DNA from: an uncultured Ignavibacteria bacterium
Lineage (GTDB): Bacteria > Zixibacteria > MSB-5A5 > CAIYYT01
Length of the DNA stretch: 64,000 nucleotides
Direction of reading: 5' to 3'
Assembly (NCBI GenBank): GCA_964520555.1
Contig: CAZFNN010000001.1
Span: 253,858-317,857 of the forward strand
The notes beneath the pieces were generated by a model that was not told the origin of the DNA, made no database searches, and saw nothing but the letters and a program-made list of their open reading frames with translations. Positions 7,187 through 49,804 of this stretch are shown piece after piece. The position numbers and the translations under genes are program-made. Position 1 is the first letter of the stretch, and each line of letters starts with the position of its first letter.

Positions 7187-7285
7187 TGATTCTCCTTGTC
7201 ATAATCGCAGCACCCCCGCGAAACGACGGGGCGTTGCCTTAATAAGTGAGAATTGGCGGGGGAAATCCAGTAAGATATTGACCGG

Positions 7286-8245: not shown

Positions 8246-8264
8246 CGCCGTTTCGGCGGCGGCA

Positions 8265-27192: not shown

Positions 27193-28479
27193 TTAGTCAG
27201 CGCAGCCACAAGGCGGCGGACCGCCCGCAAAGATGAAATTGATCAGGTAGACCGCGTCGCTGATCGAGAGTGAACCGCTGCAATCCGCGTCGCCGGACCC
27301 TTCGACCTGCGGTTCGGGGCCGCCGGCAAAAATGAAGTTGATCAGGTAGACGGCATCCGAGACCGAGACCGTCCCGGAGTTATCAGCGTCACCCTTGGGA
27401 ACAAAGCATTCAGGGGACTTGGCCGCCACAGCCGGACCATCGCCGACATCGAACGCCTTCAGTACGTTTCCCTGAGCGTCGATCTCAACCAAACGATCAT
27501 CGGCGAAACAGCACGCGGCCACCGTTGAATCAGTAACCGCCGTCGCCGAGGTCACGCCCCAGCAAGTAATGATGGGGTTGGAGGGTCCATGCATGATGCT
27601 CCAGCTCGCGAGGTCGACTGTAAAGACGAGTCCGCCCGAGAGCTGCGCTCTGGACAACCTCCGCTCCACGATCTGCAATCCCCCGGAATCGCGTTTGACC
27701 GGCGGCGGCCAGCCGCCGGCGGCGAGAAATGCTACCCCCGTCTTAGTGATGGCAAGCCCGCCCGGCGAACCACCGATGTCAAGCGAGTCAATAAGATTCA
27801 GGGTCGCCGGGTCGAACTTGAAGAGTCTGCCCCCGATATCGGCATAGTTGCCAGTACAAAGGATATACAAGTATCCATCGTAACCGAAGCGAGCAAGTTG
27901 GGGATTGATGCCAACCGCTACGCGCTTGACCAGCGTATCGGCGTTCAAGTCCCAGACCTCAAGCTTGCCTTGATCGTACTCGAACAACTCGTTGAAACTG
28001 GTGAGGCAGATGTAGGCGCGGCGCCCTCGGATGACGATTCCTTGCGGGCTATCGCTGTCCAGATTATCCCCTACGGGAAACTCGGTTATGACCGCGCGAC
28101 TGCCGGCATCAACTTTGGTCACTGTCGAAGCGACCAAATTCGTCACATAGATCGTGTCGGTGCCGAGAAATGCGCCGTTGTAAGGGTTCCGGCCGGCGCC
28201 GACAAAGAGCTGTCCGACTCGCGCCAAAGTGGTCATGTCGTAGAAGTAGAGATCATTGCTGCCGGAATTTATGGCAATACCCCGGCTGGCACTGACAACA
28301 AAGTCATTGGGATAGAGACCAAGTTGATCGACACCGAGCGTAGCAGCGCTATCACTCAAGTTGACTAAATCGAACGTCTCACCCAGCCCGTCAACGACGA
28401 CGAGATTGCGTTCGGCCGCCGCCACTGAGCCCCAAACCAGGATTGGCAAGAAGATCCAGGACAGATTTCGAAGAAGCAT
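27193..28479 (-). CDS. Secreted YVTN-type beta-propeller protein with a C-terminal dockerin-like double repeat; candidate surface cobalamin-capture accessory (BtuG-like role)
   Basis: Signal peptide (no lipobox). Repeated beta-propeller blade motifs (IYVTNLVASTVTKVD, AYICLTSFNELFEYD, LYILCTGNY...LFKFD). C-terminal GDADNSGTVSVSDAVYLINFIFAGGPEP and GDADCSGSLSISDAVYLINFIFAGGPPP, two 28-aa repeats matching the dockerin Ca-binding loop pattern D-x-D-x-(S/D)-G-x5-D-A-V-x-L. Its start lies 19 nt after the stop of the riboswitch-controlled TonB receptor. Confidence 0.6.
   Translation of the reverse strand: MLLRNLSWIFLPILVWGSVAAAERNLVVVDGLGETFDLVNLSDSAATLGVDQLGLYPNDFVVSASRGIAINSGSNDLYFYDMTTLARVGQLFVGAGRNPYNGAFLGTDTIYVTNLVASTVTKVDAGSRAVITEFPVGDNLDSDSPQGIVIRGRRAYICLTSFNELFEYDQGKLEVWDLNADTLVKRVAVGINPQLARFGYDGYLYILCTGNYADIGGRLFKFDPATLNLIDSLDIGGSPGGLAITKTGVAFLAAGGWPPPVKRDSGGLQIVERRLSRAQLSGGLVFTVDLASWSIMHGPSNPIITCWGVTSATAVTDSTVAACCFADDRLVEIDAQGNVLKAFDVGDGPAVAAKSPECFVPKGDADNSGTVSVSDAVYLINFIFAGGPEPQVEGSGDADCSGSLSISDAVYLINFIFAGGPPPCGCAD
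27208..27375. repeat. Two tandem 84-bp repeat units inside the CDS (encode the dockerin-like repeat pair)
   Basis: Near-identical DNA units ..CCGCCGGCAAA(G/A)ATGAA(A/G)TTGATCAGGTAGAC(C/G)GC(G/A)TC.. are visible directly. Confidence 0.6.
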
Positions 28480-28497: not shown

Positions 28498-30705
28498 TTA
28501 GATTGCGATACGAAATGAGAGCACCAGGCTGCGCGGAGGCATCGGCATGCGCTCCAGCAGCTCGTAGCGCTGATCGAACAAGTTGTAGGCGGCCAGGCGA
28601 ATCGTGCTGCTCGTCGGCGCCACCGTAAACGTGTATTCCAAAACAAGATCATGCAGCGCGAAACCCGGTTGAGCTTTGGAATTTGCCTCACGAATGTAGC
28701 GCTCGCCGGTGAAGCTGTAGCGATAGTCCATCCGCACCTTCTTCAACATCGCCGAGACCGTGAGTCGCTCGGTGCGATTTGGTTTGAAGGGAATAGTGTT
28801 CCCGGCGTAACCCGAACCCGTTGACTCGTTCACGGCGTTAAGAGTGTTGCGCGTGTAGCTCAATTCCAGCCGGTGATTGTGAGTCGCCAATTTGATCTCG
28901 AACTCAGTGCCGGAATGACGGGCACGATCGAGATTCACCGGCCGGTACTTGCCGTCAAACTGCCGCCGCCAGACGATCATCTCGGCCAGACGGCTGGAAT
29001 ACCAGGTGTTCTTCAATTCGAGGACAATCGGTGCTTCGTGGCGAAAGAAGATTCCGAGATCGCGCGTAACTGCGGTTTCGGGCTTGAGGTCGGGATTGGA
29101 CTCGACGAAGACGTCATCGCGCCAAAACAGCGCATCGAGCGGCGGCAGTCGATACGACTCAGCATAGCTCGCCTGCACACCAAGAACGAATGGCCGGCGC
29201 ACCTGCACGGTTCCGCCCAAATACGGCGAAGTATGGCTCTCTTTATCGACGCGATCCAAACGCCAGTTGCCCTCAAGCAAGGCAGCAAGCCACCGATAAG
29301 CCGGCGACAGCCTGATCCCGCTCACAAAGGACTCGGTGCGCTGACGCGTTCGCGGCAACGAGCGGCCCGGCGCGACGAGATCGTCATTGAGAAATGTCTC
29401 GCCGGTGACTTCCCCGCCGACGTGCGGCTCGAACCACGAGGCGACCGACGGACTCCAGTCGACATCGACACGCCGAAGAATCTGGAGGTAGTTCTTTTCG
29501 TAAGGCAGGTAAGCCTCACGATCGCGGAAGTACTGACCGATTTGGCGTAATGCGACGCCGACCCGGAGGTTGGACGCATCGTAATTGGCTGCAAGAAGCA
29601 GGTTCTCCCGCTTGGCAAGAGTCGCGCCGGTCGTCTCTTGAAAGATCGCCCCGGGCAGGCCGCTGTGGCTGTTGGCTTGATGGATGATTGCCGACAGCCG
29701 CTGCCACCGTCGGGGCCGAAGTGAAGCAAACAGCGAATAGGCGCGACGGAAATTGTTGCGGCGCTCCAGATCACCGAGGTACGGGTGGGTATAGCTGTAG
29801 TCGTTCGCTTGCTGCGAGTAGTCATAGCTCAATGCCACAGCAGTGCCGAGCAGTTGTGCGCCCGCCGTTGTAGCGGCGGCGGTCTGCTCGAAACTCCCAC
29901 GCTGGAATGAAACCTGCAGCGACGGATCGCTGAGCAAGAGCGGCCGCCGGGTCGTGACACTCACCGCTCCGCCCAGGCCGTTCGCACCGAAGCGCGCCGA
30001 ACCGCCGGTCTTGACCACCTCAACCCTCTCGATGTTCTCGACTGGGATCGTGCTGAGATCGGCGGCGCCGCCATCGGGATTCAGGGGAACACCATCAAGC
30101 AAAATGAGTACGCTTTGCGGAGAGAAGCCCCGCAACGAAGCATATTGTGTGCGGCCATCGGATTCCAACTGCACACCCGTCTGCGCCAGGAACTCGCCGA
30201 GCGTATGCGCCACTGATGCCGCAATCTGAGCACGACCGTACACGACACTTCCCGGCGAAACGGAACGGGTGGAGGTAATCGTCTGCGTGGGCAATTCGAT
30301 GGTGGTGGTCTGCACCCACAGCGACAGCCCAATGCTTGTGCCCTCTCGCAGCAGAATGCCCTCCCATTGCTTTGACGCAATGAAGGCTGATTCACAGCGT
30401 ACCGACATCACCCCCGGGGTAAGCCGCGAGAGTCGAAAACGACCCTGGGAATCCGTGGTGGCAGTGACTCCCTGCGGGAGCGCGGTCACCAGCACACCGC
30501 CAACGGGTACTTCCAGCAGTGAATCGCGGACGACGCCGGTGATCTCCCCGAAGTCCTGGCATCGAACCGAGGGGGCTGTCAGCAGTGTCAGTAAGACATG
30601 GCAGGCGGCGAGTGCAGCGCAAAGATGGTGCAGACGGAACCGCTGCGGCGATGAGCGCGCCGCCAACGTGCGTTGCAGAAAAAAGGCCCGGAAGAAGTCT
30701 GTCAT
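28498..30705 (-). CDS. btuB: TonB-dependent outer-membrane receptor, BtuB-like (cobalamin riboswitch-controlled), with N-terminal carboxypeptidase-regulatory-like domain
   Basis: Plug and barrel motifs (QTGVQLESDGRTQYASLRGFSPQSVLILLDGVPLN, VEVVKTGGSARFGANGLGGAVSVTT). Start trimmed to the MTDFFRAFF Met at 30705 (signal peptide, GGAG RBS) because the track's upstream extension would run into the riboswitch. A B12 riboswitch lies immediately upstream. Confidence 0.8.
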   Translation of the reverse strand: MTDFFRAFFLQRTLAARSSPQRFRLHHLCAALAACHVLLTLLTAPSVRCQDFGEITGVVRDSLLEVPVGGVLVTALPQGVTATTDSQGRFRLSRLTPGVMSVRCESAFIASKQWEGILLREGTSIGLSLWVQTTTIELPTQTITSTRSVSPGSVVYGRAQIAASVAHTLGEFLAQTGVQLESDGRTQYASLRGFSPQSVLILLDGVPLNPDGGAADLSTIPVENIERVEVVKTGGSARFGANGLGGAVSVTTRRPLLLSDPSLQVSFQRGSFEQTAAATTAGAQLLGTAVALSYDYSQQANDYSYTHPYLGDLERRNNFRRAYSLFASLRPRRWQRLSAIIHQANSHSGLPGAIFQETTGATLAKRENLLLAANYDASNLRVGVALRQIGQYFRDREAYLPYEKNYLQILRRVDVDWSPSVASWFEPHVGGEVTGETFLNDDLVAPGRSLPRTRQRTESFVSGIRLSPAYRWLAALLEGNWRLDRVDKESHTSPYLGGTVQVRRPFVLGVQASYAESYRLPPLDALFWRDDVFVESNPDLKPETAVTRDLGIFFRHEAPIVLELKNTWYSSRLAEMIVWRRQFDGKYRPVNLDRARHSGTEFEIKLATHNHRLELSYTRNTLNAVNESTGSGYAGNTIPFKPNRTERLTVSAMLKKVRMDYRYSFTGERYIREANSKAQPGFALHDLVLEYTFTVAPTSSTIRLAAYNLFDQRYELLERMPMPPRSLVLSFRIAI

Positions 30706-30729
30706 ACAACAACTCCACGGGCGGGCATG

Positions 30730-30760
30730 AAAAAACCGACCTGTGTCAAGTCGGTCAGGA
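30730..30760 (-). terminator. Expression-platform terminator/attenuator of the cobalamin riboswitch
   Basis: Minus-strand RNA: CUGACCGAC-UUGACACAG-GUCGGU followed by UUUUUUC, about 25 nt before the btuB-like start codon. Confidence 0.55.
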
Positions 30761-30799
30761 CCAACTCCTGAACCCGCGCAGGAATAAGTGAACGATGAT

Positions 30800-30945
30800 G
30801 ACTTTCGGCAGGTCTCCTGACTTGTCAGCTTCCAACCTACTCTCCCGCGCCTTCCCGGTTTCCCAGTGGCATGGTGGGGATTTCGTAGCTGCTTACAGTA
30901 GCGGGGCTGTGTGGGAATTTCACCCACTTCCCGATTAAGCAATTG
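30800..30945 (-). ncRNA. Cobalamin (AdoCbl/B12) riboswitch
   Basis: Minus-strand RNA contains ..GGGAAGUGGGUGAAAUUCCCACACAGCCCCGCUACUGUAAGCAGC.. (conserved core), GCCACUGGGA, and the B12 box AGUCAGGAGACCUGCC, in the canonical order, in the 5' leader of a TonB-dependent receptor. Confidence 0.85.
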
Positions 30946-30975
30946 CGCCGAAAATCGTTAGCGATGTCGAAACTG

Positions 30976-39780: not shown

Positions 39781-40329
39781 ATGCAAATTGGCGAAAAAGC
39801 GCCGTTCTTCAAAGGCGTGGCCGTCATGCCGGACAAAACCTTCAAGAAGATTACCTTGGACGATTACCGGGGCAAATGGTTGGTGCTCTTCTTCTACCCA
39901 CTCGATTTCAGCTTCGTCTGCCCGACGGAGGTGCGCGCTTTCTCGCTGGCCTTCAACAAATTCAAGGATGTCGGCGCCGACCTGCTTGGCTGTTCCGTCG
40001 ACTCGCACTTTGCCCATCTGGCCTGGATTGAAAAAGAGCTCGGCCAGGTGAAGTTTCCGCTCCTCTCCGATATCACCAAGAACATCTCGCGTTCCTACAA
40101 TGTACTCGTGCACGGCGCGTTCAGTCTGCGCGGCACGTATGTCATCGATCCCGACGGCGTACTCAAGTCGATCGTGGTTAACGACACGTCGATCGGTCGC
40201 TCGATTGACGAAACCCTGCGCACGCTGAAAGCGATTCAAACCGGCGAACTGACCGGCGCCGGCTGGCAGCCGGGCGACGAGACGCTTGGCCTCGATGGCT
40301 CCAAGCACTACGACTCCGGAACCGACTGA
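39781..40329 (+). CDS. Peroxiredoxin (Prx1/AhpC-type fold; peroxidatic Cys present, canonical resolving Cys absent)
   Basis: FFYPLDFSFVCPTEV peroxidatic motif. C-terminal GELTGAGWQPG occupies the place of the typical GEVCPAxW (Cys replaced by Thr). Confidence 0.85.
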   Translation: MQIGEKAPFFKGVAVMPDKTFKKITLDDYRGKWLVLFFYPLDFSFVCPTEVRAFSLAFNKFKDVGADLLGCSVDSHFAHLAWIEKELGQVKFPLLSDITKNISRSYNVLVHGAFSLRGTYVIDPDGVLKSIVVNDTSIGRSIDETLRTLKAIQTGELTGAGWQPGDETLGLDGSKHYDSGTD

Positions 40330-40458
40330 GGCGATGGCTTCTGTCTAATACCTGCGCCGGTCTTCATCGACATTCCTGTACAAGTTCGACTTGACTGAGA
40401 GTCTCCGACTGTCTATGCTGATAGTGCAGTTGCGGTATTACTCTGCACCGGAGGTAAC

Positions 40459-40992
40459 ATGCAAATCGGTCAACCCGCACCCGAGTTCTGCGGAGTTGCT
40501 GTCATGCCGAACAAGCGGTTTCGCGAACTCCGCATGACCGACTTTCGCGAAAAGTGGCTGGTGCTCTTCTTCTACCCGCTTGACTTCACTTCCGAATTTC
40601 CACGTGAGCTGCAATCATTCGTTGAGATCTACCCGCGGTTTCGAGGACTGAATGTCGAAGTCATTGGCTGCTCGGTTGATTCGCATTTCACGCACCTGAA
40701 TGCGATCGAACACTACTTCAGTCAAATCAGCTTCCCCCTGATGTCTGATCTTAACAACGACATTGCGCGCAACTACGAAGTGCTGACGGACGGAGGATTC
40801 AGTCAGCGAGCAGTCTTTATCATCGACCCCGCCGGCACCCTGAGAGTGGCCTGGGTAACCGACAGTGCCCTGACTGGGTCTGTTGATGAGATCCTGCGAA
40901 TCGTCAGTGAACTCCAGACCAAGGATGGGCTCGGGTTGGAGACTCCGGCAGACCGGCACACTCTTGGGCACTCGCGGCCCGAGTCCACTTAG
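40459..40992 (+). CDS. Peroxiredoxin-like paralog lacking the peroxidatic cysteine (probable pseudo-enzyme)
   Basis: Aligns over its whole length with the upstream Prx (MQIG.PAP.F.GVAVMP.K.F......DFR.KWLVLFFYPLDF...VIGCSVDSHFTHL), but the active-site FVCPTE is FTSEFPRE and no C-terminal Cys is present. Confidence 0.75.
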   Translation: MQIGQPAPEFCGVAVMPNKRFRELRMTDFREKWLVLFFYPLDFTSEFPRELQSFVEIYPRFRGLNVEVIGCSVDSHFTHLNAIEHYFSQISFPLMSDLNNDIARNYEVLTDGGFSQRAVFIIDPAGTLRVAWVTDSALTGSVDEILRIVSELQTKDGLGLETPADRHTLGHSRPEST

Positions 40993-41017
40993 TTGCAGAC
41001 AGTGAAATGGCGGGGCT

Positions 41018-41536
41018 TCAAGCTACAAATACGCGGTAAAGAAAGATCCCGATCAGCACGAACGACACGATAAGCTGAACTACGGCGCCGAAGACAAACC
41101 CGACAAATGTCCCGGCACCGGCTTTGAGAGACGCCGTTAACGATTTGCCGACCAGCAGCTCGACGACGACGGCGCCGACGAGCGGCCCGATGATCACACC
41201 GACGAGCGAGCCGACAAAGAGTCCGATCACCATGCCGACAAAAGCGCCGAACATTCCCCAGCGCGAGGCGCCCCACCGCTTGGCGCCATACACCTGCACA
41301 AAGTGTTGAAGTATCCAGATCACGGTAACCGCGATGCCGGAATAGACCAGGAACTCGCCCGAGAGATAAGCGTAGCCGGTGAAATAGCCGAAGATGGCCA
41401 TCGCCGCCCAGATCAGTGGCAATCCCGGGATGACCGGCACGATGACTCCGGCAGCGCCAACCAACATCGTTAGGAAACAGCCGACGAAGAGCAGGACTTC
41501 CGCTGTCGTTGTTTGCAAGAGGAGAAGCGAGATCAC
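41018..41536 (-). CDS. Small multi-TM membrane protein (DUF456-like), last gene of the TPP-riboswitch operon
   Basis: 172 aa, four or five Gly-rich TM helices (IPGLPLIW.., GLFVGSLVGVIIGPLVGAVVV). Lies 39 nt downstream of the SSS permease on the same strand. Confidence 0.45.
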   Translation of the reverse strand: MISLLLLQTTTAEVLLFVGCFLTMLVGAAGVIVPVIPGLPLIWAAMAIFGYFTGYAYLSGEFLVYSGIAVTVIWILQHFVQVYGAKRWGASRWGMFGAFVGMVIGLFVGSLVGVIIGPLVGAVVVELLVGKSLTASLKAGAGTFVGFVFGAVVQLIVSFVLIGIFLYRVFVA

Positions 41537-41575
41537 GGAATCAACTTACGAAAAACCGTGCCAAATGTTAAGAAC

Positions 41576-42961
41576 TTAGCGAAGGTACGACGGCCGCCGC
41601 CGACCACAGATCAGGTAGACCAGAAACGATGCCGCCAGACCGGGAAAGATCGGCTCGATCCCGAGCGCGTAGGTGCCGTCCGGTATCAGCTGCGTCGTAC
41701 TGAGCCAGACTGTGGAAGCGAGTCCGCCGAGCACCATCGCGACCACGGCCGCTCGACCACTCATGACGCGATTGCCGACAAAGGTTGTCAGCAGCGGAAC
41801 CAGTAGAATCGGCGTCCCGACCGAACCAAAGCCGTACCAGACCGTCACCACCGATTCAAAAAGGGCGGAAACCATGACCGTCAGAACAGCCGACCCGATC
41901 AGCGCCCATTTCGTGTAGCGATTTATGATATCATCGGTCGCATCCCGCCAGCGCGCAAAGATGTCCTTGCCAACAGTGGACGCGGCGATGAACAGGTATG
42001 AGTCGGCGGTAGAGATGACGGTCGCGATCAGCGAAACGGCGAAGATCCCGAACAACCCGGCCGGCAGGACTTGCTGCCCCAGCAGCGGAAAGGCGGAAAC
42101 GGGATCAATGTCGGGCGGCAGGATGGCTCGCGCATAGAGCCCGCAGGTCGTGGTCAGCATATCAAAGACAAACCAGCAGATGATCGAGACGAGAATACCC
42201 CGACGGGCGGTCTTCTCATCACGGGCGGCATAGCAGGCCTGGAAAAACGACGGCTCCACCAGAGTCGACAGTGCGATGAAATACCAGACGATAATGAACC
42301 AGGCGCTGTTACCCCCGTGCCATTGAAAGTGAGTTTCCGGGAGCCGGGCGGTAAGAAAATCCTGGCCGCCGTAGCCGGTGACCAGTACGATGAAGATCAC
42401 CGCGAAGCCGAGATACATGAAGAGAAAGTGCCAGATATCGGCGCGGACGAGCGTACGGAAGCCGCCAATGAAGGCATAGATTGTGACGATGACCGCGCCA
42501 ACGATGATGCCAATCGACTTCGGCCAGCCGAAGAAGGTTTGTCCGAGCACTCCTAAAATCAGAATGTAAGCTGTTGGTAGCGTCCACCCGAATACGACCA
42601 CGGCGCCGAGAATCGCCGCCGGACGGCCGTAATACTGGTTGAGGCGATCGGCAATCGTAATGAACTCGGTGCGGCGTGCCTTGGCCGCCAGCAGCCACGC
42701 AAAGAGCAAAGCGCCGAGATAGTAGGGTAATCCAAAGACGAACCAATTGGAAACCCCGTAGCGATAGGAGTATTCGCCGACACCAAGTATCCCGCCATAC
42801 CAGTTGCAGACCAGTGTGGCGACGAATGCAGGCAAGGTCAGACGGCGGCCATCCAACATGTATTCGACGGCGGTATTGCCTACCGTCGGTCGGCGCCAGA
42901 AGCTGAATACAATGATGCCGAGCAAATACGCGGCGATTATTAGTGTGTCGACGAGCTCCAA
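41576..42961 (-). CDS. Sodium:solute symporter (SSS) family permease, ThiV/PanF-like; candidate thiamine or thiamine-precursor transporter
   Basis: 13 predicted TM helices; SSS N-terminal signature (TAVEYMLDGRRLTLPAFVATLVCNWYGGILGVGE). Lies 3 nt downstream of the TPP-riboswitch-controlled TonB receptor. Confidence 0.7.
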   Translation of the reverse strand: MELVDTLIIAAYLLGIIVFSFWRRPTVGNTAVEYMLDGRRLTLPAFVATLVCNWYGGILGVGEYSYRYGVSNWFVFGLPYYLGALLFAWLLAAKARRTEFITIADRLNQYYGRPAAILGAVVVFGWTLPTAYILILGVLGQTFFGWPKSIGIIVGAVIVTIYAFIGGFRTLVRADIWHFLFMYLGFAVIFIVLVTGYGGQDFLTARLPETHFQWHGGNSAWFIIVWYFIALSTLVEPSFFQACYAARDEKTARRGILVSIICWFVFDMLTTTCGLYARAILPPDIDPVSAFPLLGQQVLPAGLFGIFAVSLIATVISTADSYLFIAASTVGKDIFARWRDATDDIINRYTKWALIGSAVLTVMVSALFESVVTVWYGFGSVGTPILLVPLLTTFVGNRVMSGRAAVVAMVLGGLASTVWLSTTQLIPDGTYALGIEPIFPGLAASFLVYLICGRRRPSYLR

Positions 42962-42964
42962 TGC

Positions 42965-45475
42965 CTACTCAAGTTCCAATCGCAAGGTGGTGAAAATCGA
43001 GCGTCCGGCAGCGGGGATGTACTCCGACCAATGCTGGTCAGGTGCGTCGCGGAATCGAGTCACGCCGCCGTAGCCAGAAACCTCGTACTTGTGATCGAGC
43101 ACGTTGTCGACCCGTGCTGCGAGTTCGAGGCGACCCAGATCGGCGATCTCTCCCAAAGTAATTCCGGCGGAAACGGCCGCTACGAAATACGGATCGATCG
43201 AAAGTTCGCGCACGTTGTCATTTTCGACATAGATGCGCCCAACCATGCGTCCACGACATGCGAGATTGAAGCGCTGGTGGCGATACTCGGCGATCAGATT
43301 TCCAATGTAGTCGGGAAAGCCGGGGATCGTCTTGCCGTCGTAAGAAAAAGAGCGGCTTTCGAGATAATTCCAGTCGGCGTCATTGTCGTAGACGGCTTCT
43401 GCGATTTCAAAGCCTTTGATCCGATTGTAATTGTACGAAAAGTTGCCGCTCAGCTGGAAATTGCGACCGACGGTGTTTGTAGTCGAGAGTTCGATCCCGG
43501 CATGCACCGATCGGTCGGCGTTGGTGGTGATCGGGAGACCGAGATCATTGAGTCCCCCATACGGCACGATCTCGTTGGCGAAGTCCATCCAGAACAGGTT
43601 CAGCGTGTGCGCACTGGATTGAGTCCGCCAGCCTAACCCCAATTCGAAATTATGAACGCGTTCCGATTGGGCGGTCGGATCGCCGAAGATAATCGTGGAA
43701 TCACTGCCGCTACGTCGGATCTCCTGGATATGTAGCGAGGGGAAGGCGTACGGATCGCCGGCATCATAAATCTCCCAGTCGGCCGGAACACGCGAAGACA
43801 GCGAGTAGCTCGCCAGCAAGTTCACCGCCGGTGCAACCGCGTAGCTGAAGCCCAGGCGCGGCGAAAGAAAAGTCCAGTCAATGTCATACGCATAACCGGC
43901 AAAAGCGCCCAGCCGGTTCTGTTTAAAACTGTAGTCTTGATGACGCAATTGCAGACTGACATTGGCAGTCAGCCGCTCGCCGAGGCGGCGGCTCTGTACT
44001 GCATAGAGTGAGCCAAACCACTTTTCACCAAAATATTCGTAGTAGCGATGACGCGGATCGATCGCGTTCGTGACGCCTTCGGCCCAAACCACTTGTCCCC
44101 AGTGGTCGGATTCGAAGTAGTAAAATGAGCCGCCGATGCTGAGAGCACCCTGCTTCTGCTGGAACTCGAGCCGCGGGTTCCAGCCCCACTGATTCTTGCG
44201 AACGTGCTGCTGCCGGACGAGATCGCCGGAAATGATGGCCTCAATCGAATCGCCGTCAGGACTGGTAATGATCGTCGCCGGAATGTTGTAGTCGGCAAAG
44301 CTGCGATCGTCGCGATACTGCTCGTAGTAACCGTCACCGTGGATGTGGAAGAGCGTGTTTTGCAGCGAGGCATTGGGACTCAACTCGTAGGTATTGTGCA
44401 GCTCGTAATGCGGTTGACTGAAATTGTCGGTCTCGTTGTCATAAGTTAACGGATTGAAACGGCGGTCGCTTTCAAGTTGCTCGCGCGAAACACCGTAGTA
44501 GGCGAGGTGCATCTGCATCGGACCGCCGTAGACATTGACCGTCGTCGTCATCCGCGGATCGAGACGCGACAGCGAAAGCTGATACGCCCAACCGTCATAC
44601 CACGCATTGCTGCGGTAGCCGTCGGAAAGCTGGCGGGAGTAGCGCCCGGCAAAATTCCAGCGACCATCAATGAGGCCGGAACGATATTCAACCGCTTGCT
44701 TCTGCATATCGCCGACCCAGCGGCCATCGTCCCAGAATCCGCCGTAACCGGTGGCCAACGAAATGCTGCGCGACTGCTCGATTCCCGCCGAGACGATATT
44801 GACTGTGCCCCCAAAGGAAGCATCCCCGTAAAGCGAACTGCCGATCCCCCGCTGCACCTGGACGTCTTTTACGCCGGCGGCAAAGTCAGGGATATCGACG
44901 AAATAGGTCGCCTGATCCTCAGGGTCGTTCAGTGGAATTCCGTTGATGTAAACTGAGACCCGTTTATCGTCGAAGCCACGGATCTTCAGATAGCTGTAAC
45001 CCAGCCCGCCGCCGGCATCGGCATAAGAATAGACATTGGGAGTGGTTTCGAGCAAGAGCGGCAACTCGCCGATCAAATAGTCCCGTTCGATATCCTGGCT
45101 CGTGAAATCGGAAAAAGCCGTCGGCGTACGCCCCACTTCGGCTCGATCCGCCGTGACGGTCACACCCTGGCTGCGAAATACCGTCGGCCGCAACTGCACG
45201 CGCACGGGGGCGCCATCGCTAACGGAAACCATCACTGGCTGGAAGCCGATGTGCTTGATCGTAATGCGTCGAGTGACGCCGGGGTCGACCTGGAACCCGA
45301 ATGCTCCATCTTTGCCGGTTACGGCGACCACACGATCGCCATCGGCGATGATGGCTGCACCTTCCACGGGTTGGCCACTCTCGTCAGTAATGAGTCCGGT
45401 CAGTTCCAAGCCGACAACTGTTGCCGACAGGACGAGGACAAGAAATGCGGAAAGAAGGAAGAGCGATTTCATCAC
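42965..45475 (-). CDS. TonB-dependent outer-membrane receptor (TPP-riboswitch-controlled; candidate thiamine receptor) with N-terminal carboxypeptidase-regulatory-like domain
   Basis: Signal peptide. CarbopepD_reg-like N-terminus (LTGLITDESGQPVEGAAIIADGDRVVAVTGKDGAFGF). Plug motifs (KIRGFDDKRVSVYINGIPLNDPEDQ, VQRGIGSSLYGDASFGGTVNIVS). 836 aa. Confidence 0.8.
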   Translation of the reverse strand: MMKSLFLLSAFLVLVLSATVVGLELTGLITDESGQPVEGAAIIADGDRVVAVTGKDGAFGFQVDPGVTRRITIKHIGFQPVMVSVSDGAPVRVQLRPTVFRSQGVTVTADRAEVGRTPTAFSDFTSQDIERDYLIGELPLLLETTPNVYSYADAGGGLGYSYLKIRGFDDKRVSVYINGIPLNDPEDQATYFVDIPDFAAGVKDVQVQRGIGSSLYGDASFGGTVNIVSAGIEQSRSISLATGYGGFWDDGRWVGDMQKQAVEYRSGLIDGRWNFAGRYSRQLSDGYRSNAWYDGWAYQLSLSRLDPRMTTTVNVYGGPMQMHLAYYGVSREQLESDRRFNPLTYDNETDNFSQPHYELHNTYELSPNASLQNTLFHIHGDGYYEQYRDDRSFADYNIPATIITSPDGDSIEAIISGDLVRQQHVRKNQWGWNPRLEFQQKQGALSIGGSFYYFESDHWGQVVWAEGVTNAIDPRHRYYEYFGEKWFGSLYAVQSRRLGERLTANVSLQLRHQDYSFKQNRLGAFAGYAYDIDWTFLSPRLGFSYAVAPAVNLLASYSLSSRVPADWEIYDAGDPYAFPSLHIQEIRRSGSDSTIIFGDPTAQSERVHNFELGLGWRTQSSAHTLNLFWMDFANEIVPYGGLNDLGLPITTNADRSVHAGIELSTTNTVGRNFQLSGNFSYNYNRIKGFEIAEAVYDNDADWNYLESRSFSYDGKTIPGFPDYIGNLIAEYRHQRFNLACRGRMVGRIYVENDNVRELSIDPYFVAAVSAGITLGEIADLGRLELAARVDNVLDHKYEVSGYGGVTRFRDAPDQHWSEYIPAAGRSIFTTLRLELE

Positions 45476-45565
45476 GGCACCTCACTATTTGCCTGCGCAT
45501 AAAAAATGCCGCCTGATCTCCGCAGGGATGGCAGCAACGCAAATCGCGTCCGTGAATCGGTCGCT

Positions 45566-45647
45566 GCCGTTTCCCTACGCCGGTATTATCCGGATCAGGT
45601 ATTGGGGGTGTGATCTCAGACGACTGGATGGTCGCCACTCCCAACGG
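45566..45647 (-). ncRNA. TPP (THI-box) riboswitch
   Basis: Minus-strand RNA: GCCGUUGGGAGUGGCGACCAUCCAGUCGUCUGAGAUCACACCCCCAAUACCUGAUCCGGAUAAUACCGGCGUAGGGAAACGGC. It contains CUGAGA, ACCCC, and ACCUGAUC-GGAUAAUACCGGCGUAGGGAA (near-identical to the consensus ACCUGAUCUGGAUAAUGCCAGCGUAGGGAA), closed by a P1 helix GCCGUU/AACGGC. About 90 nt separate it from the receptor start codon. Confidence 0.85.
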
Positions 45648-45750
45648 CAATTATGTCTTCGCAATTATTACGCAGGAGAACTGTGAACGCAAGAGGAATT
45701 TCTATCAACGCAGTCTACGCCACATTTGCCCCCGGCCGACTTCCGAAGAG

Positions 45751-46389
45751 ATGATCGCAACCCCAGGTACACGCCCTCGTATCATCTACATTGTGGGCAA
45801 CGTTATCACGCCGGAGGACAACAAGCCTCCACGCCGTCAGCGGGTGTGTCCCGTTGAACATGCCGGCATCTTGGATGGTGTCTGGCGACGATTGCTGCAG
45901 AATCCCCGAAAGATTCTGTCTCCCTACATCCGCGATGGTATGACCGTCCTCGACTTCGGCTGTGGTCCCGGATTCTTCACGGTTACCATGGCAGAGCTCG
46001 TAGGGCCAACGGGGCGGGTCTTAGCGGTAGATTTGCAGGAGGGTATGCTGAGACTGTTAGGATCACGGATTCGCGGTTCAAAGCTGGAATCGCGCGTCAC
46101 ACTTCACCGCTGCAGCCCCGATTGCATTGGGGTCAACGCGAAGGTCGATTTCATCCTTGCCTTCTATGTCGTTCATGAACTCCCTGACCAGCACCAATGG
46201 TGCCGTGAGGTCGCTGATTTGTTGCGGCCCAAGGGTCTACTTCTCATCGTCGAACCGAGACCGTTTCACGTCTCCAAGGCAGACTTCGAGCAGACGATCC
46301 TCGCGGCAAGAACTGCCGGATTGGCGGCTACTTCAAGTCCACGCGTGCTCCTCAGCCGGACCGCCCTGCTCAACAAAAAAGTCGTTTAA
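45751..46389 (+). CDS. Class I SAM-dependent methyltransferase
   Basis: Motif I VLDFGCGPGFFTVTMAELVGPTGRVLAVDL. Start trimmed to the ATG at 45751 because the track's upstream extension overlaps the TPP riboswitch on the other strand. Confidence 0.7.
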   Translation: MIATPGTRPRIIYIVGNVITPEDNKPPRRQRVCPVEHAGILDGVWRRLLQNPRKILSPYIRDGMTVLDFGCGPGFFTVTMAELVGPTGRVLAVDLQEGMLRLLGSRIRGSKLESRVTLHRCSPDCIGVNAKVDFILAFYVVHELPDQHQWCREVADLLRPKGLLLIVEPRPFHVSKADFEQTILAARTAGLAATSSPRVLLSRTALLNKKVV

Positions 46390-46532: not shown

Positions 46533-47783
46533 GTGGACAAGATGGTCAAGATAAAGGCATTCAGGGGTTTACGGCCAAAGGTGGAACTGATAGACAAAGT
46601 TGCTACTCCTCCCTATGATGTGCTCTCCAGCGACGAAGCGCGCCGAATGGCGGCGGGCAATGACTTCTCATTCCTCCGGGTCACTAAACCGGAAATCACT
46701 TTCCCGCCCGATCACTCTCCTGCCGGCAACGACCTCTACGAACGCGCTCGCGATAATCTTCGCCGCCTGATCGAGGTCGGCGCGATGGCGCAGGATCAAG
46801 AAGAGTCCGTCTACGTCTATCGTCTGCGCTGGCGCGATGTCGACCAAACCGGCTACATGATCCTCTCTTCATGCGACGACTATCTGGAGGGCCGGATCAA
46901 GCGCCACGAATTCACTCGTCCCGACAAGGAGACCGATCGCACCAATCTGAACGACATTGTCAATGCCCAGACCGGTCCGGTCTTCCTCTTCTATCAGTCG
47001 GACTCCGATCTGGATGCGATTCTTGCCGCCATCGCCAAGACGGCGCCGGTATACGATTTTGTGGCGGCGGACGTTCGTCACGAATTCTGGATCGTCAACG
47101 ACAAGGCCAAGGTGAACGAGATCGTGGCGGCCTTCGCCGGACTGGAAGCAACTTATATCGCCGATGGCCACCATCGCTGTGCTGCCGCGGCCAATGTCTG
47201 CAAGCAGCGTCGTGCTGCGAGCGGCGGGCCGGGACATGACGAACCTTACGCATACTTCTTGTCCGTGGTGTTTCCGGAGAACCAACTGAAGATCCTCCCC
47301 TATAACCGCGTGGTCCGGGATCTCAACGGTCACGACCCCTCGGCGTTTCTCAACCTAATTCGCAGTCGCTTCGAGGTAACCGCCATGCCCGCCGGCAAGA
47401 CAGTTGAGCCGGAGGTTGACCGCGTACTCGGCATGTATATCGAAGATCGTTGGTATAAGCTTCAGCCATTGCCGAACAGCTACAACAAGTTTGATCCGAT
47501 CGAATCGCTCGACGTGAGTATTCTCCAGAAAAACCTCCTGGAACCGATTCTGGGCATCACCAAGCCGCGCACCGACAAGCGGATTGACTTTGTCGGCGGC
47601 ATTCGCGGTACCGGTGAGCTGGTCAAGCTTGTCGACTCGGGAAAATTCAAGGTGGCATTTGTCGTCCCACCCGTCAGCTTGCGTGCTCTGCGGAATGTGG
47701 CCGACACCGGGCAGGTGATGCCGCCAAAATCGACCTGGTTCGAGCCAAAATTGCGAGATGGGATAGCCGTTTATCTCCTGTAA
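46533..47783 (+). CDS. DUF1015-family protein
   Basis: 416 aa, IADGHHR motif; this family recurs next to serA/serC. Function unknown. Confidence 0.6.
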   Translation: MDKMVKIKAFRGLRPKVELIDKVATPPYDVLSSDEARRMAAGNDFSFLRVTKPEITFPPDHSPAGNDLYERARDNLRRLIEVGAMAQDQEESVYVYRLRWRDVDQTGYMILSSCDDYLEGRIKRHEFTRPDKETDRTNLNDIVNAQTGPVFLFYQSDSDLDAILAAIAKTAPVYDFVAADVRHEFWIVNDKAKVNEIVAAFAGLEATYIADGHHRCAAAANVCKQRRAASGGPGHDEPYAYFLSVVFPENQLKILPYNRVVRDLNGHDPSAFLNLIRSRFEVTAMPAGKTVEPEVDRVLGMYIEDRWYKLQPLPNSYNKFDPIESLDVSILQKNLLEPILGITKPRTDKRIDFVGGIRGTGELVKLVDSGKFKVAFVVPPVSLRALRNVADTGQVMPPKSTWFEPKLRDGIAVYLL

Positions 47784-47816
47784 CCATAGAATCAAGGTTC
47801 ATTTGAGGATGATGTT

Positions 47817-48707
47817 ATGAAGATTCTAATCTGTGACGCTTTTGATCCGACGCTTCCCGAACTGCTCAAGAAGCACGGCGAAGTGACCGCGGACATGAAT
47901 GAGCTCCCGAATGCTGCTGTCGCGCTGGTGCGCTCCAAGACGAAAGGCGACCGGGATTTCATCGACAAGGGCAAGTCACTGAAGATGATTATTCGCGGCG
48001 GCGTTGGCCTCGACAATATCGATGTCAAGTACGCGCGCGAGAAGAACATTGAAGTGCGCAACACTGCCGAGGCCTCCAGCATCGCGGTTGCCGAACTGGC
48101 CTTCGCCATGATGATCGCAGTTCCGAATCGGCTGGTTGAGGCCAACACCTCTATGCAGGCCGGCAAGTGGATGAAGAAGGAGCTGAAGCGCACCGAACTG
48201 TACGGCAAGATTCTCGGCATCATCGGCTGCGGCCGCATCGGCACCGAGTTGGCGCGGCGCGCCAAGGCGTTCGGCATGATGGTGGTCGGCTACGACCCGT
48301 CGGTCGATGTCTCCGAGGACATCCTGATCAAGCCGACGCTCCATGATATGCTGCCGATCTGCGATTACATCTCGATTCATACGCCCCTTACCGACCGAAC
48401 CCGTGGCTTCATTAATAAGGATACCATTGCCCGGATGAAGAACGGCGTCGTGATCATCAACACGGGGCGCGGCAAGTGCGTGATCGAAGCCGACGTGGTC
48501 GATGCACTGAAGTCGGGCAAGATCGGCTTCTACGCCAACGACGTCTGGTACTCCGATCCGCCGGAGAGTACTCCCCTGGTCGGGGCGCCCAATACCCTGC
48601 TGGCGCCGCATATCGGGGCTTCCACCAATGAGAACTTGCTGCGCATCGGCAAAGCCGTTGACAGGATTATTACCAAGGCGGCCGACGCCGGCTTCTTTGG
48701 TAAATGA
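47817..48707 (+). CDS. serA: D-3-phosphoglycerate dehydrogenase-like 2-hydroxyacid dehydrogenase (short form, no ACT domain)
   Basis: NAD-binding GIIGCGRIGTELARRAKAFGM, catalytic R/E/H region; 296 aa; lies next to serC. Confidence 0.7.
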   Translation: MKILICDAFDPTLPELLKKHGEVTADMNELPNAAVALVRSKTKGDRDFIDKGKSLKMIIRGGVGLDNIDVKYAREKNIEVRNTAEASSIAVAELAFAMMIAVPNRLVEANTSMQAGKWMKKELKRTELYGKILGIIGCGRIGTELARRAKAFGMMVVGYDPSVDVSEDILIKPTLHDMLPICDYISIHTPLTDRTRGFINKDTIARMKNGVVIINTGRGKCVIEADVVDALKSGKIGFYANDVWYSDPPESTPLVGAPNTLLAPHIGASTNENLLRIGKAVDRIITKAADAGFFGK

Positions 48708-48721
48708 GAGGATAAACAGCC

Positions 48722-49804
48722 ATGAAACGCGTCTTTAATTTCAACCCCGGCCCGGCGGCGTTGCCTGAAGAAGCGCTGAAAACCGCTGCGGCCGAGATGC
48801 TCGATTACAAAGGCACCGGCATGTCGGTGCTGGAGATGAGCCACCGTTCGAAGGACTTTGAAGCTATTCTTGCCGAAACCAAGAGCCTGGTCAAAAAGCA
48901 CCTGGCCGTCCCCGACAACTTCCAGATTCTGTTCATGGGCGGCGGCGCTTCCCTGCAATTCGCGATGCTGCCGATGAACTTCCTCTCGCAGGGGCAGTCG
49001 GCTGACTATGTGATTACGGGAGCGTGGGCGCAAAAGGCGGCATCCGAGGCCAAGCTCTTCGGTACGGTCAATGTCGCGGCCACCTCGGAACCGGACAAGT
49101 TCACCTGGGTGCCGAAGAACGACCAGATCAAGTTGAATCCGGCCGCTCAGTACGTGCACATGACCTCAAACAACACCATCTTCGGCACGCAATTGCGTGA
49201 ATACCCGAATACCGGCAATGTGCCGCTGGTCGTGGACATGTCGTCGGATATCATGTCAAAACGCGTCGATGTCTCGAAGATGTCGTTTGTTTACGCGGGA
49301 GCACAAAAGAACATGGGACCGGCCGGAGTGACCGTGCTCCTCATCCGCGACGACTTTCTGCCAAAACAGAAGACCGGTTTGCCGAAGATTCTGAGCTACT
49401 CGACTTACGTGAAAGAGAACTCACTCTACAACACGCCGCCGGTGTATGCGATCTACATCACGATGCTGACCATGAGCTGGATCGACTCGGTCGGCGGATT
49501 GGGCGAGGTCGAAAAACGCAACAAGCGCAAGTTTGATTTGCTGTATGGCCAAATCGACGGCTCCAACGGCTACTATCGCGGTACCGTCCGTCCCGACAGC
49601 CGCTCCTGGATGAACGCCACCTTGCGTCTCGGTTCCGAGGAGCTGGAAGACAAGTTCATTAAAGAGGCGAAGGCGGCGGGATTCGTTGGACTCAAAGGCC
49701 ATCGTTCGGTCGGCGGCGTGCGGGTCTCGATGTACAACGCCGTGTCGGTTGAAGCGATTGAGAAGCTGGTCGAGTTCATGAAGAACTTCCAGAAGAAGAA
49801 TTAG
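48722..49804 (+). CDS. serC: Phosphoserine aminotransferase
   Basis: MKRVFNFNPGPAALPEEAL N-terminus, PLP-Lys region (YAGAQKNMGPAGVTV), 360 aa. Confidence 0.9.
   Translation: MKRVFNFNPGPAALPEEALKTAAAEMLDYKGTGMSVLEMSHRSKDFEAILAETKSLVKKHLAVPDNFQILFMGGGASLQFAMLPMNFLSQGQSADYVITGAWAQKAASEAKLFGTVNVAATSEPDKFTWVPKNDQIKLNPAAQYVHMTSNNTIFGTQLREYPNTGNVPLVVDMSSDIMSKRVDVSKMSFVYAGAQKNMGPAGVTVLLIRDDFLPKQKTGLPKILSYSTYVKENSLYNTPPVYAIYITMLTMSWIDSVGGLGEVEKRNKRKFDLLYGQIDGSNGYYRGTVRPDSRSWMNATLRLGSEELEDKFIKEAKAAGFVGLKGHRSVGGVRVSMYNAVSVEAIEKLVEFMKNFQKKN

Follow-up and report, generated by a model that had tools for sequence, protein, structure and literature searches.

In gut Bacteroidetes, a TPP riboswitch precedes the OMthi-pnuT-tnr3(TPK) operon, and deletion of both transporters leads to poorer growth at low thiamine (PMC5613172). 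The order seen in Bacteroides, in which the riboswitch is followed by a TonB-dependent receptor (OMthi, BT2390) and an inner-membrane thiamine carrier (PMC5613172; bioRxiv 10.1101/867226), is also the order of the locus described here. The two systems belong to the same FCB superphylum, and the relatives of both mix transcriptional and translational platforms. They differ in the carrier, which is a 461-aa sodium:solute symporter (SSS) here and the small PnuT facilitator in Bacteroides, and in the end of the operon, which has a DUF456 gene and no TPK gene here. A TPK gene, shared with the Bacteroides operon, is found in 12 loci related to this one. A second described system is the pair of omr and the PanF-like thiV, which were predicted as THI-regulated transporters (Rodionov et al. 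2002, cited in PMC2211319). In that citing account, a BtuB-type outer-membrane receptor and a PanF-homologous SSS permease each lie behind THI elements. The present locus has both, but here they are joined in one operon which is conserved across many candidate phyla. The third is SAR11 ThiV/SSSP (SAR11_0811), a sodium:HMP symporter (PMC11452348), which shares with this locus an SSS carrier, a TPP riboswitch, and a role in B1-related salvage, but has no receptor partner in SAR11. In the literature searched, I found no paper on this operon in Zixibacteria or Ignavibacteria and none describing a single receptor-SSS operon conserved across many candidate phyla.

I analyzed the locus in a 64-kb stretch of DNA (the window). 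It is quite likely that the TPP riboswitch turns off an operon for vitamin B1 uptake by ending transcription early, that the receptor and the symporter carry out the import, and that the DUF456 protein is a passenger. This would add a well-supported thiamine import route, widely distributed among FCB-group phyla with few cultured members (Zixibacteria, Ignavibacteria, Eisenbacteria, Fibrobacteres, and others) and composed of a TonB-dependent receptor and a PanF-like sodium symporter instead of the PnuT of gut Bacteroides. Public records give the two proteins only the generic names "TonB-dependent receptor" and "sodium:solute symporter family protein"; thus, the riboswitch and the TPK linkage provide a testable function for them. 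This helps when auxotrophy for vitamin B1 and its cross-feeding are to be predicted from metagenomes. The accepted view of how such systems work is unchanged, and the finding, though genuine, is a rather ordinary one.

The aptamer and the receptor-symporter operon

The features of the locus are listed in Table 1. An Rfam scan of both strands of the window detected a TPP riboswitch with a score of 64.4 bits (gathering score, 54.3; E = 2.3e-10), covering the RF00059 model end to end (1-105). My own covariance model (R1) gave 95.9 bits for the same aptamer. The core motifs CUGAGA and ACCUGAUCCGGAUAAUACCGGCGUAGGGAA are present, as are the pyrimidine- and pyrophosphate-sensor sequences of the class (CUGAGA and ACCUGAUCNGGNUAAUNCCNGCGNAGGGA) and the closing helix P1, which pairs GCCGUU (45648-45643) with AACGGC (45571-45566). 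The P3 extension is missing from this aptamer and likewise from 32 related aptamers. Judged by this full-length family match, from which the ligand is assigned, the RNA is a TPP riboswitch. The first-pass annotation, made from the sequence before any database search, had recognized a THI element closed by GCCGUU/AACGGC and had placed it at 45560-45655, and the covariance match agrees with both the identity and the place.

Table 1. Features of the TPP riboswitch-led locus in the window
Feature	Position	Strand	Basis or remark
TPP riboswitch aptamer (THI element), compact, short P3	45555..45652	-	Rfam RF00059
Antiterminator helix (predicted)	45530..45568	-	GGCAGCGAC (45568-45560, overlaps the P1 3' strand) x GUUGCUGCC (45538-45530)
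Intrinsic terminator (predicted)	45501..45536	-	Hairpin 45536-45507, then U6 45506-45501; by folding
SD-like GAGG (45483-45480) and receptor start ATG (45472)	45472..45483	-	Read from sequence
TonB-dependent outer-membrane receptor, 835 aa	42965..45472	-	Pfam; first gene after the aptamer
PanF-like sodium:solute symporter, 461 aa; predicted inner-membrane thiamine importer	41576..42961	-	Pfam SSF
DUF456 (YqgC-family) polytopic membrane protein, 172 aa	41018..41536	-	Pfam PF04306; last gene on the strand

Three minus-strand ORFs (42965-45475, 41576-42961, and 41018-41536) lie behind the aptamer in the order receptor, symporter, and DUF456. The start codon of the symporter gene lies 3 nt after the stop codon of the receptor gene, and the gap between the symporter and DUF456 genes is 39 nt. 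The order and both gaps are as they had been annotated, and the same gene boundaries are called on contigs whose permeases are 93% and 89% identical. For the receptor, GTG at 45475 is in frame with the listed ATG; gene calls in the relatives give receptors of 835 aa that begin with MKS.

The receptor has an N-terminal CarboxypepD_reg domain (PF13620, 38 bits) and the domains Plug (PF07715, 59.9 bits) and TonB_dep_Rec_b-barrel (PF00593, 101.5 bits), the latter two above their Pfam cutoffs. The plug followed by the 22-strand beta-barrel domain identifies it as a TonB-dependent receptor, as had been proposed. Its translation begins with a signal peptide, MKSLFLLSAFLVLVLSATVVG, and contains the sequence GVTVTA at about residues 103-108, ahead of the plug, which I take to resemble TonB boxes such as DTLVVTA. 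A PDB sequence search gave no meaningful match for the receptor, the permease, or the DUF456 protein. The window has another TonB-dependent receptor gene, which is preceded by a cobalamin riboswitch at 30790-30967, so the wording "second" receptor used for the present one is right.

The conserved unit and the name ThiV

Is the riboswitch-receptor-symporter arrangement found elsewhere? Eighty genome loci were fetched with the symporter, from Zixibacteria, Ignavibacteria, Eisenbacteria, Fibrobacteres, Bacteroidota, and others. A homologous receptor adjoins the symporter in 68 of them, and a TPP aptamer is found in 59. Sixteen of the 21 loci without an aptamer are contigs that end early upstream, and wherever a complete receptor gene lies upstream among the 80 loci, it is accompanied by an aptamer. 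The other five (L018, L050, L055, L061, and L075) have ample upstream sequence with neither an Rfam match at the gathering score nor a receptor; the permease stands alone in the first four, while L075 has a TPK-SSS pair by itself. A related SSS unit is also present in metagenome-assembled genomes of Bacteroidota (L068, L075, and L079). These results support the pairing of receptor and permease, already suggested for the window, as a riboswitch-led unit conserved across many phyla.

The permease matches SSF (PF00474) with 85 bits. Its best specific NCBIfam model is PanF (TIGR02119), but the score of 77.6 bits is far below the equivalog cutoff of 328, and the assignment as a PanF pantothenate symporter was rejected. 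Among four reference SSS proteins, E. coli PanF (sodium/pantothenate symporter) is the best-matching characterized one (26% identity over 482 columns, E = 1e-20), although the genomic context here is that of thiamine and not of pantothenate. The name thiV was originally given to a homologue of PanF controlled by a THI element (Rodionov 2002, as cited in PMC2211319). The present permease, an SSS protein closest to PanF and encoded by the second gene under a THI element, is ThiV-like in this original sense, as had been annotated; the call is made by that definition. The identity with the SAR11 ThiV was rejected. With the sequence of SAR11_0811 taken from the supplement of PMC11452348, the similarity is not significant (BLASTP E about 8; phmmer 1.4 bits), while SAR11_0811 matches Phytophthora SSSP with E = 1e-37. 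Thus, by sequence comparison, the permease is unrelated to the SAR11 ThiV and belongs to a separate SSS branch. The name ThiV therefore covers two unrelated SSS branches, and annotation as an HMP or a thiamine transporter can be misled by it.

The predicted leader switch and the substrate

The start codon lies 83 nt beyond the aptamer, and this spacer contains a hairpin followed by six U residues. In the unconstrained minimum free energy (MFE) fold of the leader (-65.6 kcal/mol), the antiterminator pairs are formed and the terminator is not; both terminator arms are taken up by aptamer and linker sequences. The antiterminator is lengthened in this ligand-free fold by pairing of CCUGAUC (45599-45593), inside the aptamer, with GAUCAGG (45518-45512), which is the GGAGAUCAGG segment downstream of the aptamer. 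When P1 is enforced (-54.3 kcal/mol), the hairpin with U6 appears, and it forms only under this condition (-13.6 kcal/mol for the hairpin alone). The first-pass annotation had proposed a pairing between CCUGAUCC and GGAGAUCAGG and a switch of either a translational or an anti-terminator type. According to the folding, that pairing is a part of the predicted antiterminator, and the switch would be an antiterminator/terminator pair. A simple terminator scan missed the leader terminator because its stem is bulged. The same scan flagged a site at 41264-41244 inside the DUF456 coding region, which was rejected as a chance hit because the scan gave fewer sites than in the shuffles.

Is the switch kept in relatives? 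All 12 close relatives have kept the 3' arm of the terminator with its U-run, GGCGGCAUUUUU. In seven relatives, 85.6% of the antiterminator pairs are kept, compared with 34-49% for a slid partner. Overall, the two alternative structures are about 84-86% paired in relatives, compared with 30-58% for a slid partner; since the sequences are few and close to one another, and the window itself was the source of the structures, these figures lend weak covariation support to the two helices. Folding also predicts a P1-dependent switch for L001, L003, L004, and L090. In L004 and L090, the 5' arm is different (GCGCCGU pairing with ACGGCGC), so the logic of the switch seems to be kept with another sequence. 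In contrast, the MFE folds of a sister clade (L083, L085, and L087) have the terminator with or without P1; thus, thermodynamic folding alone fails to reproduce switching in that clade.

A transcription-termination OFF switch is predicted from these folds. When TPP is abundant, it would bind the aptamer and hold P1 closed, the downstream hairpin and six U residues would form, and RNA polymerase would halt ahead of the first gene. When TPP is scarce, P1 would open; the freed 3' strand of P1 and the linker (GGCAGCGAC), together with the CCUGAUC of the aptamer, could then pair with both terminator arms, and the operon would be transcribed. The receptor would bring thiamine, and perhaps thiamine phosphates as well, through the outer membrane, the symporter would bring thiamine across the inner membrane, and a TPK (thiamine pyrophosphokinase) encoded elsewhere would convert it into TPP.

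The substrate is most likely thiamine itself. A TPK gene (Pfam TPK_catalytic and TPK_B1_binding) lies directly upstream of the symporter gene in 12 related loci, between the receptor and the symporter wherever the receptor region is present. TPK acts on thiamine itself, and the linkage points to thiamine as the substrate, in contrast to HMP in SAR11. With the riboswitch and the conserved receptor-SSS unit, this linkage agrees with the thiamine route across both membranes that had been suggested at the outset. Alternatively, the imported compound may be a precursor of thiamine or a product of its degradation, such as HMP or thiazole, in line with the proposal for the SAR11 ThiV. Precursor transporters are under TPP riboswitches as well, the SAR11 SSS protein named ThiV is linked to HMP uptake (PMC11452348), ThiV is given as a "thiamin precursor" or "pyrimidine(/B1)" transporter in PMC11223231 and PMC10881298, and a TPK gene was not found in the 64-kb window. 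I consider this unlikely in view of the dissimilarity between the two permeases and the TPK linkage. Moreover, no recurring cluster of thiD, thiE, thiM, or tenA-like genes was found among the neighbors of the 80 loci, and Rodionov and colleagues count ThiV among the B1 transporters (PMC6593275). For the leader, regulation mainly at translation initiation, or at both levels, is a rather unlikely alternative. It would agree with the translational riboswitches that precede the thiamine transport genes of Bacteroides thetaiotaomicron (bioRxiv 10.1101/867226) and with the related leaders, about half of which lack a terminator-like hairpin; in six of the latter, the first in-frame ATG lies at the 3' strand of P1. 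The SD of the window, about 18 nt past the U-run, can pair with the U-rich stretch in the full-leader fold, so that a translational effect may be added. Nevertheless, the long spacing holds a hairpin and U-run whose formation depends on P1 and which is kept in all close relatives, and transcriptional control is tied to long aptamer-to-start distances in the Bacteroides work (bioRxiv 10.1101/867226). Intrinsic termination is thus the preferred reading.

The DUF456 gene

The last protein of the operon matches PF04306 with 110.5 bits (cutoff, 29.4) over profile positions 1-138 of 139, in agreement with the DUF456-like label it had been given. The motifs PGLPL, GAKxxGAS, and GPLVGAxxGE are kept, and the N-terminus agrees with those of the relatives. 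No terminator-like site was found in the gap between the symporter and DUF456 genes. The gene is probably co-transcribed with the operon and co-regulated by read-through, and the first-pass annotation is probably right on this point. It had also counted the protein as a component of the import route, which is not supported; the linkage to the operon is limited to a narrow clade. I surveyed ten contexts from encoding contigs and 80 metagenome loci, the latter scanned with a 10-sequence alignment. The adjacency of the SSS and DUF456 genes was found only in the window's own clade and one short metagenome contig (L100), and co-occurrence with the receptor-SSS unit across lineages was not observed. 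A general link of the DUF456 family with thiamine was rejected on this distribution, and no paper tying DUF456 to thiamine was found in the literature searched. The protein is most likely a passenger confined to this lineage, with no working role in the transporter.

Could the thiamine transporter nevertheless depend on this protein, as a genuine accessory subunit or partner, for assembly, activity, or regulation? Its place on the same strand close behind the permease would suit this idea. The arrangement is kept in L001, L081, L082, and L097, and L003 has the receptor, SSS, and DUF456 genes together even though the flanks are rearranged; L100 is more divergent and still has the SSS-DUF456 pair. 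In the sister clade, too, DUF456 is the last gene in the same-strand run behind the riboswitch. However, the permease is not followed by DUF456 in about 75 of the 80 genome loci with the riboswitch-led unit. In 74 of the 80 metagenome loci that carry DUF456, neither a TPP aptamer nor a receptor, SSS, or TPK gene lies within 5 kb of it. The sister clade has a 670-aa LtaS-like gene between the permease and DUF456, with a gap of 3 nt to the latter. In L004 and L090, DUF456 lies apart, about 5 kb away, yet its convergent AhpC neighbors are kept, which suggests that its constant partner is a synteny block and not the transporter. B. subtilis YqgC, moreover, has been linked with Mn and oxidative homeostasis (bioRxiv 10.1101/2024.02.14.580342). 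An accessory role is therefore improbable, and a lineage-specific passenger remains the preferred reading. A narrower version, in which DUF456 is a real TPP-controlled accessory of thiamine salvage in the Zixibacteria-related clade and acts with an LtaS/OpgB-like enzyme in the sister clade, is also improbable. One possibility would be periplasm-facing removal of phosphate from receptor-imported TMP or TPP, giving free thiamine for the symporter; if true, this would be the first biochemical context for DUF456. The LtaS/OpgB-like protein of the sister clade, encoded directly before DUF456, is a membrane enzyme of the alkaline phosphatase superfamily.

In a Foldseek search of the confident AF2 model of the DUF456 protein (pLDDT 91.6, six helices) against the PDB, nothing was found below E = 2.6. 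YqgC, which is co-transcribed with sodA in B. subtilis (bioRxiv 10.1101/2024.02.14.580342), is of the same Pfam family, similar in size, and likewise a polytopic membrane protein. Both genes lie beside those of antioxidant enzymes, sodA in B. subtilis and two AhpC/TSA peroxiredoxins here. Unlike yqgC, the DUF456 gene of the window ends a TPP-controlled operon, and it is convergent, not co-transcribed, with the peroxiredoxin genes.

Gene layout and conservation of the operon

An Rfam scan of the whole 64-kb window returned two matches above the gathering score, RF00059 (TPP) and RF00174 (cobalamin). The former confirms the THI element that the first-pass annotation had placed before the receptor gene. 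Both cores of this aptamer, CUGAGA and ACCUGAUCCGGAUAAUACCGGCGUAGGGAA, are present, together with a 6-bp closing helix P1 (GCCGUU 45648-45643 with AACGGC 45571-45566); the distal P3 extension is absent. The ORFs and their Pfam domains agree with the proposed order of TonB-dependent receptor, sodium:solute symporter (SSS) permease and DUF456 gene, spaced by 3 nt and 39 nt, and an HMM check assigned the last protein to PF04306 as had been claimed. The receptor translation has a signal peptide and a TonB-box-like GVTVTA, and a convergent AhpC/TSA gene closes the unit. An identical gene set with identical boundaries was found on contigs whose permeases are 93% and 89% identical. In an exact-sequence look-up, the cluster mates are called just "TonB-dependent receptor" or "sodium:solute symporter family protein" (candidate division Zixibacteria).

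Features of the window and PF00884 genes (alkaline-phosphatase superfamily, LtaS/OpgB-like) of the sister-clade loci
Feature	Position	Strand	Evidence
TPP aptamer (RF00059)	45555-45652	minus	64.4 bits (gathering 54.3), E = 2.3e-10, full model
TonB-dependent receptor	42965-45472	minus	CarboxypepD_reg, Plug, barrel domains
Sodium:solute symporter family protein	41576-42961	minus	PF00474, 85 bits
DUF456 protein	41018-41536	minus	PF04306, 110.5 bits
AhpC/TSA peroxiredoxin	40459-40992	plus	
Cobalamin riboswitch (RF00174)	30790-30967	minus	108 bits
TonB-dependent receptor ORF behind cobalamin riboswitch	28498-30942	minus	
PF00884 gene, L083	4981-6996		
PF00884 gene, L085	5000-6997		
PF00884 gene, L087	4982-6997		
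PF00884 gene, L088	4084-6099		
PF00884 gene, L089	5542-6837		

Relatives of the permease number more than 2,000, with the top scores going to proteins named from Zixibacteria and Calditrichaeota. A permease scan with one genome per species gave 80 loci from Ignavibacteria, Zixibacteria, KSB1, Cloacimonetes, Eisenbacteria, Krumholzibacteria, Fibrobacteres, Fermentibacteria, and Bacteroidota MAGs. A receptor homologue adjoins the permease in 68 of them, and a covariance model made from 33 aptamers detected a TPP aptamer in 59. Among the 21 negative loci, 16 are on contigs ending short of the expected position and five have neither receptor nor aptamer; none of the 80 loci has a complete upstream receptor without an aptamer.

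Four loci (L052, L056, L069, and L073) have tandem TPP aptamers ahead of the receptor gene, and two Eisenbacteria loci have the reverse order aptamer-SSS-receptor (L072 1494-5371 and L077 2189-6275). Upstream of the window operon lies a divergent SAM-dependent methyltransferase gene (ArsM/UbiE-like; 45610-46389, plus strand), and its longest possible reading frame would reach into the aptamer, which is encoded on the opposite strand. Gene calls of 198-201 aa in its relatives place the true start further downstream. Thirteen other loci also have such a methyltransferase gene, which in 10 of them precedes the receptor in divergent orientation. The next block (46533-49804, plus strand), consisting of DUF1015, 2-hydroxyacid dehydrogenase and class-V aminotransferase genes, also adjoins the receptor operon in L001, L002, L004, L081, L082, and L090. 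The receptor of the cobalamin-controlled operon is about 31% identical to the thiamine-operon receptor over 68 residues only. It is followed by a gene for an uncharacterised 428-aa protein (27193-28479, minus strand) with no Pfam match.

Predicted expression platforms

The aptamer is 83 nt from the receptor start codon. In the unconstrained fold of the leader up to the U-run (-65.6 kcal/mol), P1 is broken and GGCAGCGAC (45568-45560), which overlaps the P1 3' strand, pairs with GUUGCUGCC (45538-45530). GUAGGGA also pairs with UCCCUGC, and CCUGAUC (45599-45593) with GAUCAGG (45518-45512); the latter is the pairing between aptamer and downstream sequence that the first-pass annotation had noticed. 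Forcing P1 to form, as a stand-in for bound TPP, gives a fold of -54.3 kcal/mol in which the same downstream bases make a hairpin (45536-45507; -13.6 kcal/mol alone) followed by U6 (45506-45501). This arrangement is typical of OFF switches that work by termination. Most likely, TPP binding would keep P1 and permit the terminator hairpin with U6, while with P1 broken the same downstream bases would be taken up by pairing with the aptamer and linker, leaving no terminator hairpin.

The 3' arm and U-run, GGCGGCAUUUUU, are identical in all 12 close relatives, and a P1-dependent terminator is predicted also in L001, L003, L004, and L090. L004 and L090 have a different terminator 5' arm, GCGCCGU, which can still pair with the P1 3' strand and linker (ACGGCGC). 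In a seven-sequence alignment, both structures keep 84-86% pairing, compared with 30-58% in slid controls, with true covariation being sparse. In three sister-clade leaders, a terminator is predicted in both states. Given this mixture of support from relatives, sparse covariation and sister-clade folds, the termination mechanism is regarded as a well-founded prediction, not a demonstration.

In the wider family, 34 of 64 aptamers were followed by a terminator-like hairpin in a crude scan. In many Zixibacteria-type leaders AACGGAGAUG is conserved at the P1 3' strand, where the first in-frame ATG lies in six loci. This suggests translational control in such leaders, unlike the terminator design of the window. 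The mixed platforms echo the mix of riboswitch mechanisms reported for Bacteroides (bioRxiv 10.1101/867226). AACGGAGAUG follows the aptamer with no terminator-like hairpin found in L015, L019-L023, L027, L030, L032, L034, L035, L042, and L049; in L021 and L030 its ATG shares the reading frame of the receptor ORF.

Substrate and the name ThiV

The permease had been called ThiV-like, and the original definition fits: as summarized in PMC2211319 (citing Rodionov 2002), thiV is a THI-element-regulated homologue of the pantothenate symporter gene panF. The best specific NCBIfam model is PanF (77.6 bits, far below the equivalog cutoff of 328), and E. coli PanF is 26% identical over 482 columns (E = 1e-20). 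SAR11_0811, now widely called ThiV, has been linked to HMP uptake (PMC11452348). Identity of the permease with this SAR11 protein was rejected, as their similarity is not significant (E about 8). SAR11_0811 rather resembles the eukaryotic SSSP (E = 1e-37). Thus, the one name covers two separate SSS branches.

The sole recurring thiamine-related enzyme near the loci is thiamine pyrophosphokinase (TPK; Pfam TPK_catalytic and TPK_B1_binding). In 12 loci its gene immediately precedes the permease gene, and those of the 12 that include the receptor region have it between the two transporter genes. Because TPK acts on thiamine itself, its placement makes thiamine a more likely substrate than HMP or thiazole. 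No TPK gene was found in the 64-kb window. In L075, a Bacteroidota MAG locus, TPK is immediately followed by the permease (7200-9401), and the 7 kb upstream contain neither a receptor nor a TPP aptamer; here the inner-membrane part occurs without a riboswitch.

In gut Bacteroidetes, OMthi-PnuT-TPK operons are under TPP riboswitches, and mutants that have lost both transporters grow less well when thiamine is scarce (PMC5613172). The operon here probably works alike, with the sodium symporter in the place of PnuT. Both transporter parts are already known singly; according to the same summary (PMC2211319, citing Rodionov 2002), omr and thiV were each predicted as THI-regulated transporters two decades ago. 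No paper on such parts fused into one operon across these phyla was found in the searched literature. The operon is at most a minor variant, unsurprising to a specialist, but it can help to annotate genomes and to predict which uncultured lineages depend on B1.

DUF456 and its neighbours

The first-pass annotation took the DUF456 protein as a component of the transport route. This is unlikely, since the gene directly follows the permease in only two of the 80 genome loci, L001 and L003, and keeps company with AhpC/TSA genes instead. In L003, the flanks are rearranged with receptor, SSS and DUF456 still side by side, as would be expected if they form an operon in that lineage; in L004, DUF456 lies about 5 kb off on the other strand. 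A sister clade (permease 66-68% identical) has aptamer, receptor, SSS, a PF00884 gene and DUF456 on the same strand. The PF00884 protein is 665-671 aa and its gene is separated from DUF456 by 3 nt, except in L089, where the gene call is shorter, at 431 aa, and the gap wider. Convergent AhpC/TSA genes, a pair in most loci, always come after DUF456 (window 39781-41536, L001, L081-L090, and L097-L099), even in L090, where DUF456 stands alone outside the thiamine operon, behind a divergent TonB gene. The constant neighbour of DUF456 in these loci is thus an AhpC/TSA synteny block, not the transporter.

Distant DUF456 genes adjoin SpoU methylase, polyphosphate kinase, and other unrelated genes. In a survey of 80 metagenome DUF456 loci, a TPP aptamer was found in one, L097 of the window's clade, and the permease adjoins DUF456 only in L097 and L100; L098 and L099 have the AhpC neighbours only, and the remaining loci have housekeeping neighbours with no TPP aptamer found. 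DUF456 is probably co-transcribed in the window, as a lineage-specific passenger; a role linked to thiamine, shared in the sister clade with the LtaS-like enzyme, is unlikely. Its AF2 model is confident (pLDDT 91.6) and has six helices, and no matching solved fold was found. YqgC of B. subtilis, the one family member that has been studied, shares a transcript with sodA and is tied to manganese and radical stress (bioRxiv 10.1101/2024.02.14.580342). DUF456 is therefore beside antioxidant enzyme genes, sodA or AhpC/TSA, in two distant phyla. On the 2-kb metagenome contig L100 (111-2076), a more divergent DUF456 (45% identity) lies 43 nt downstream of the permease, indicating that the SSS-DUF456 adjacency is not strictly limited to the window's immediate clade.
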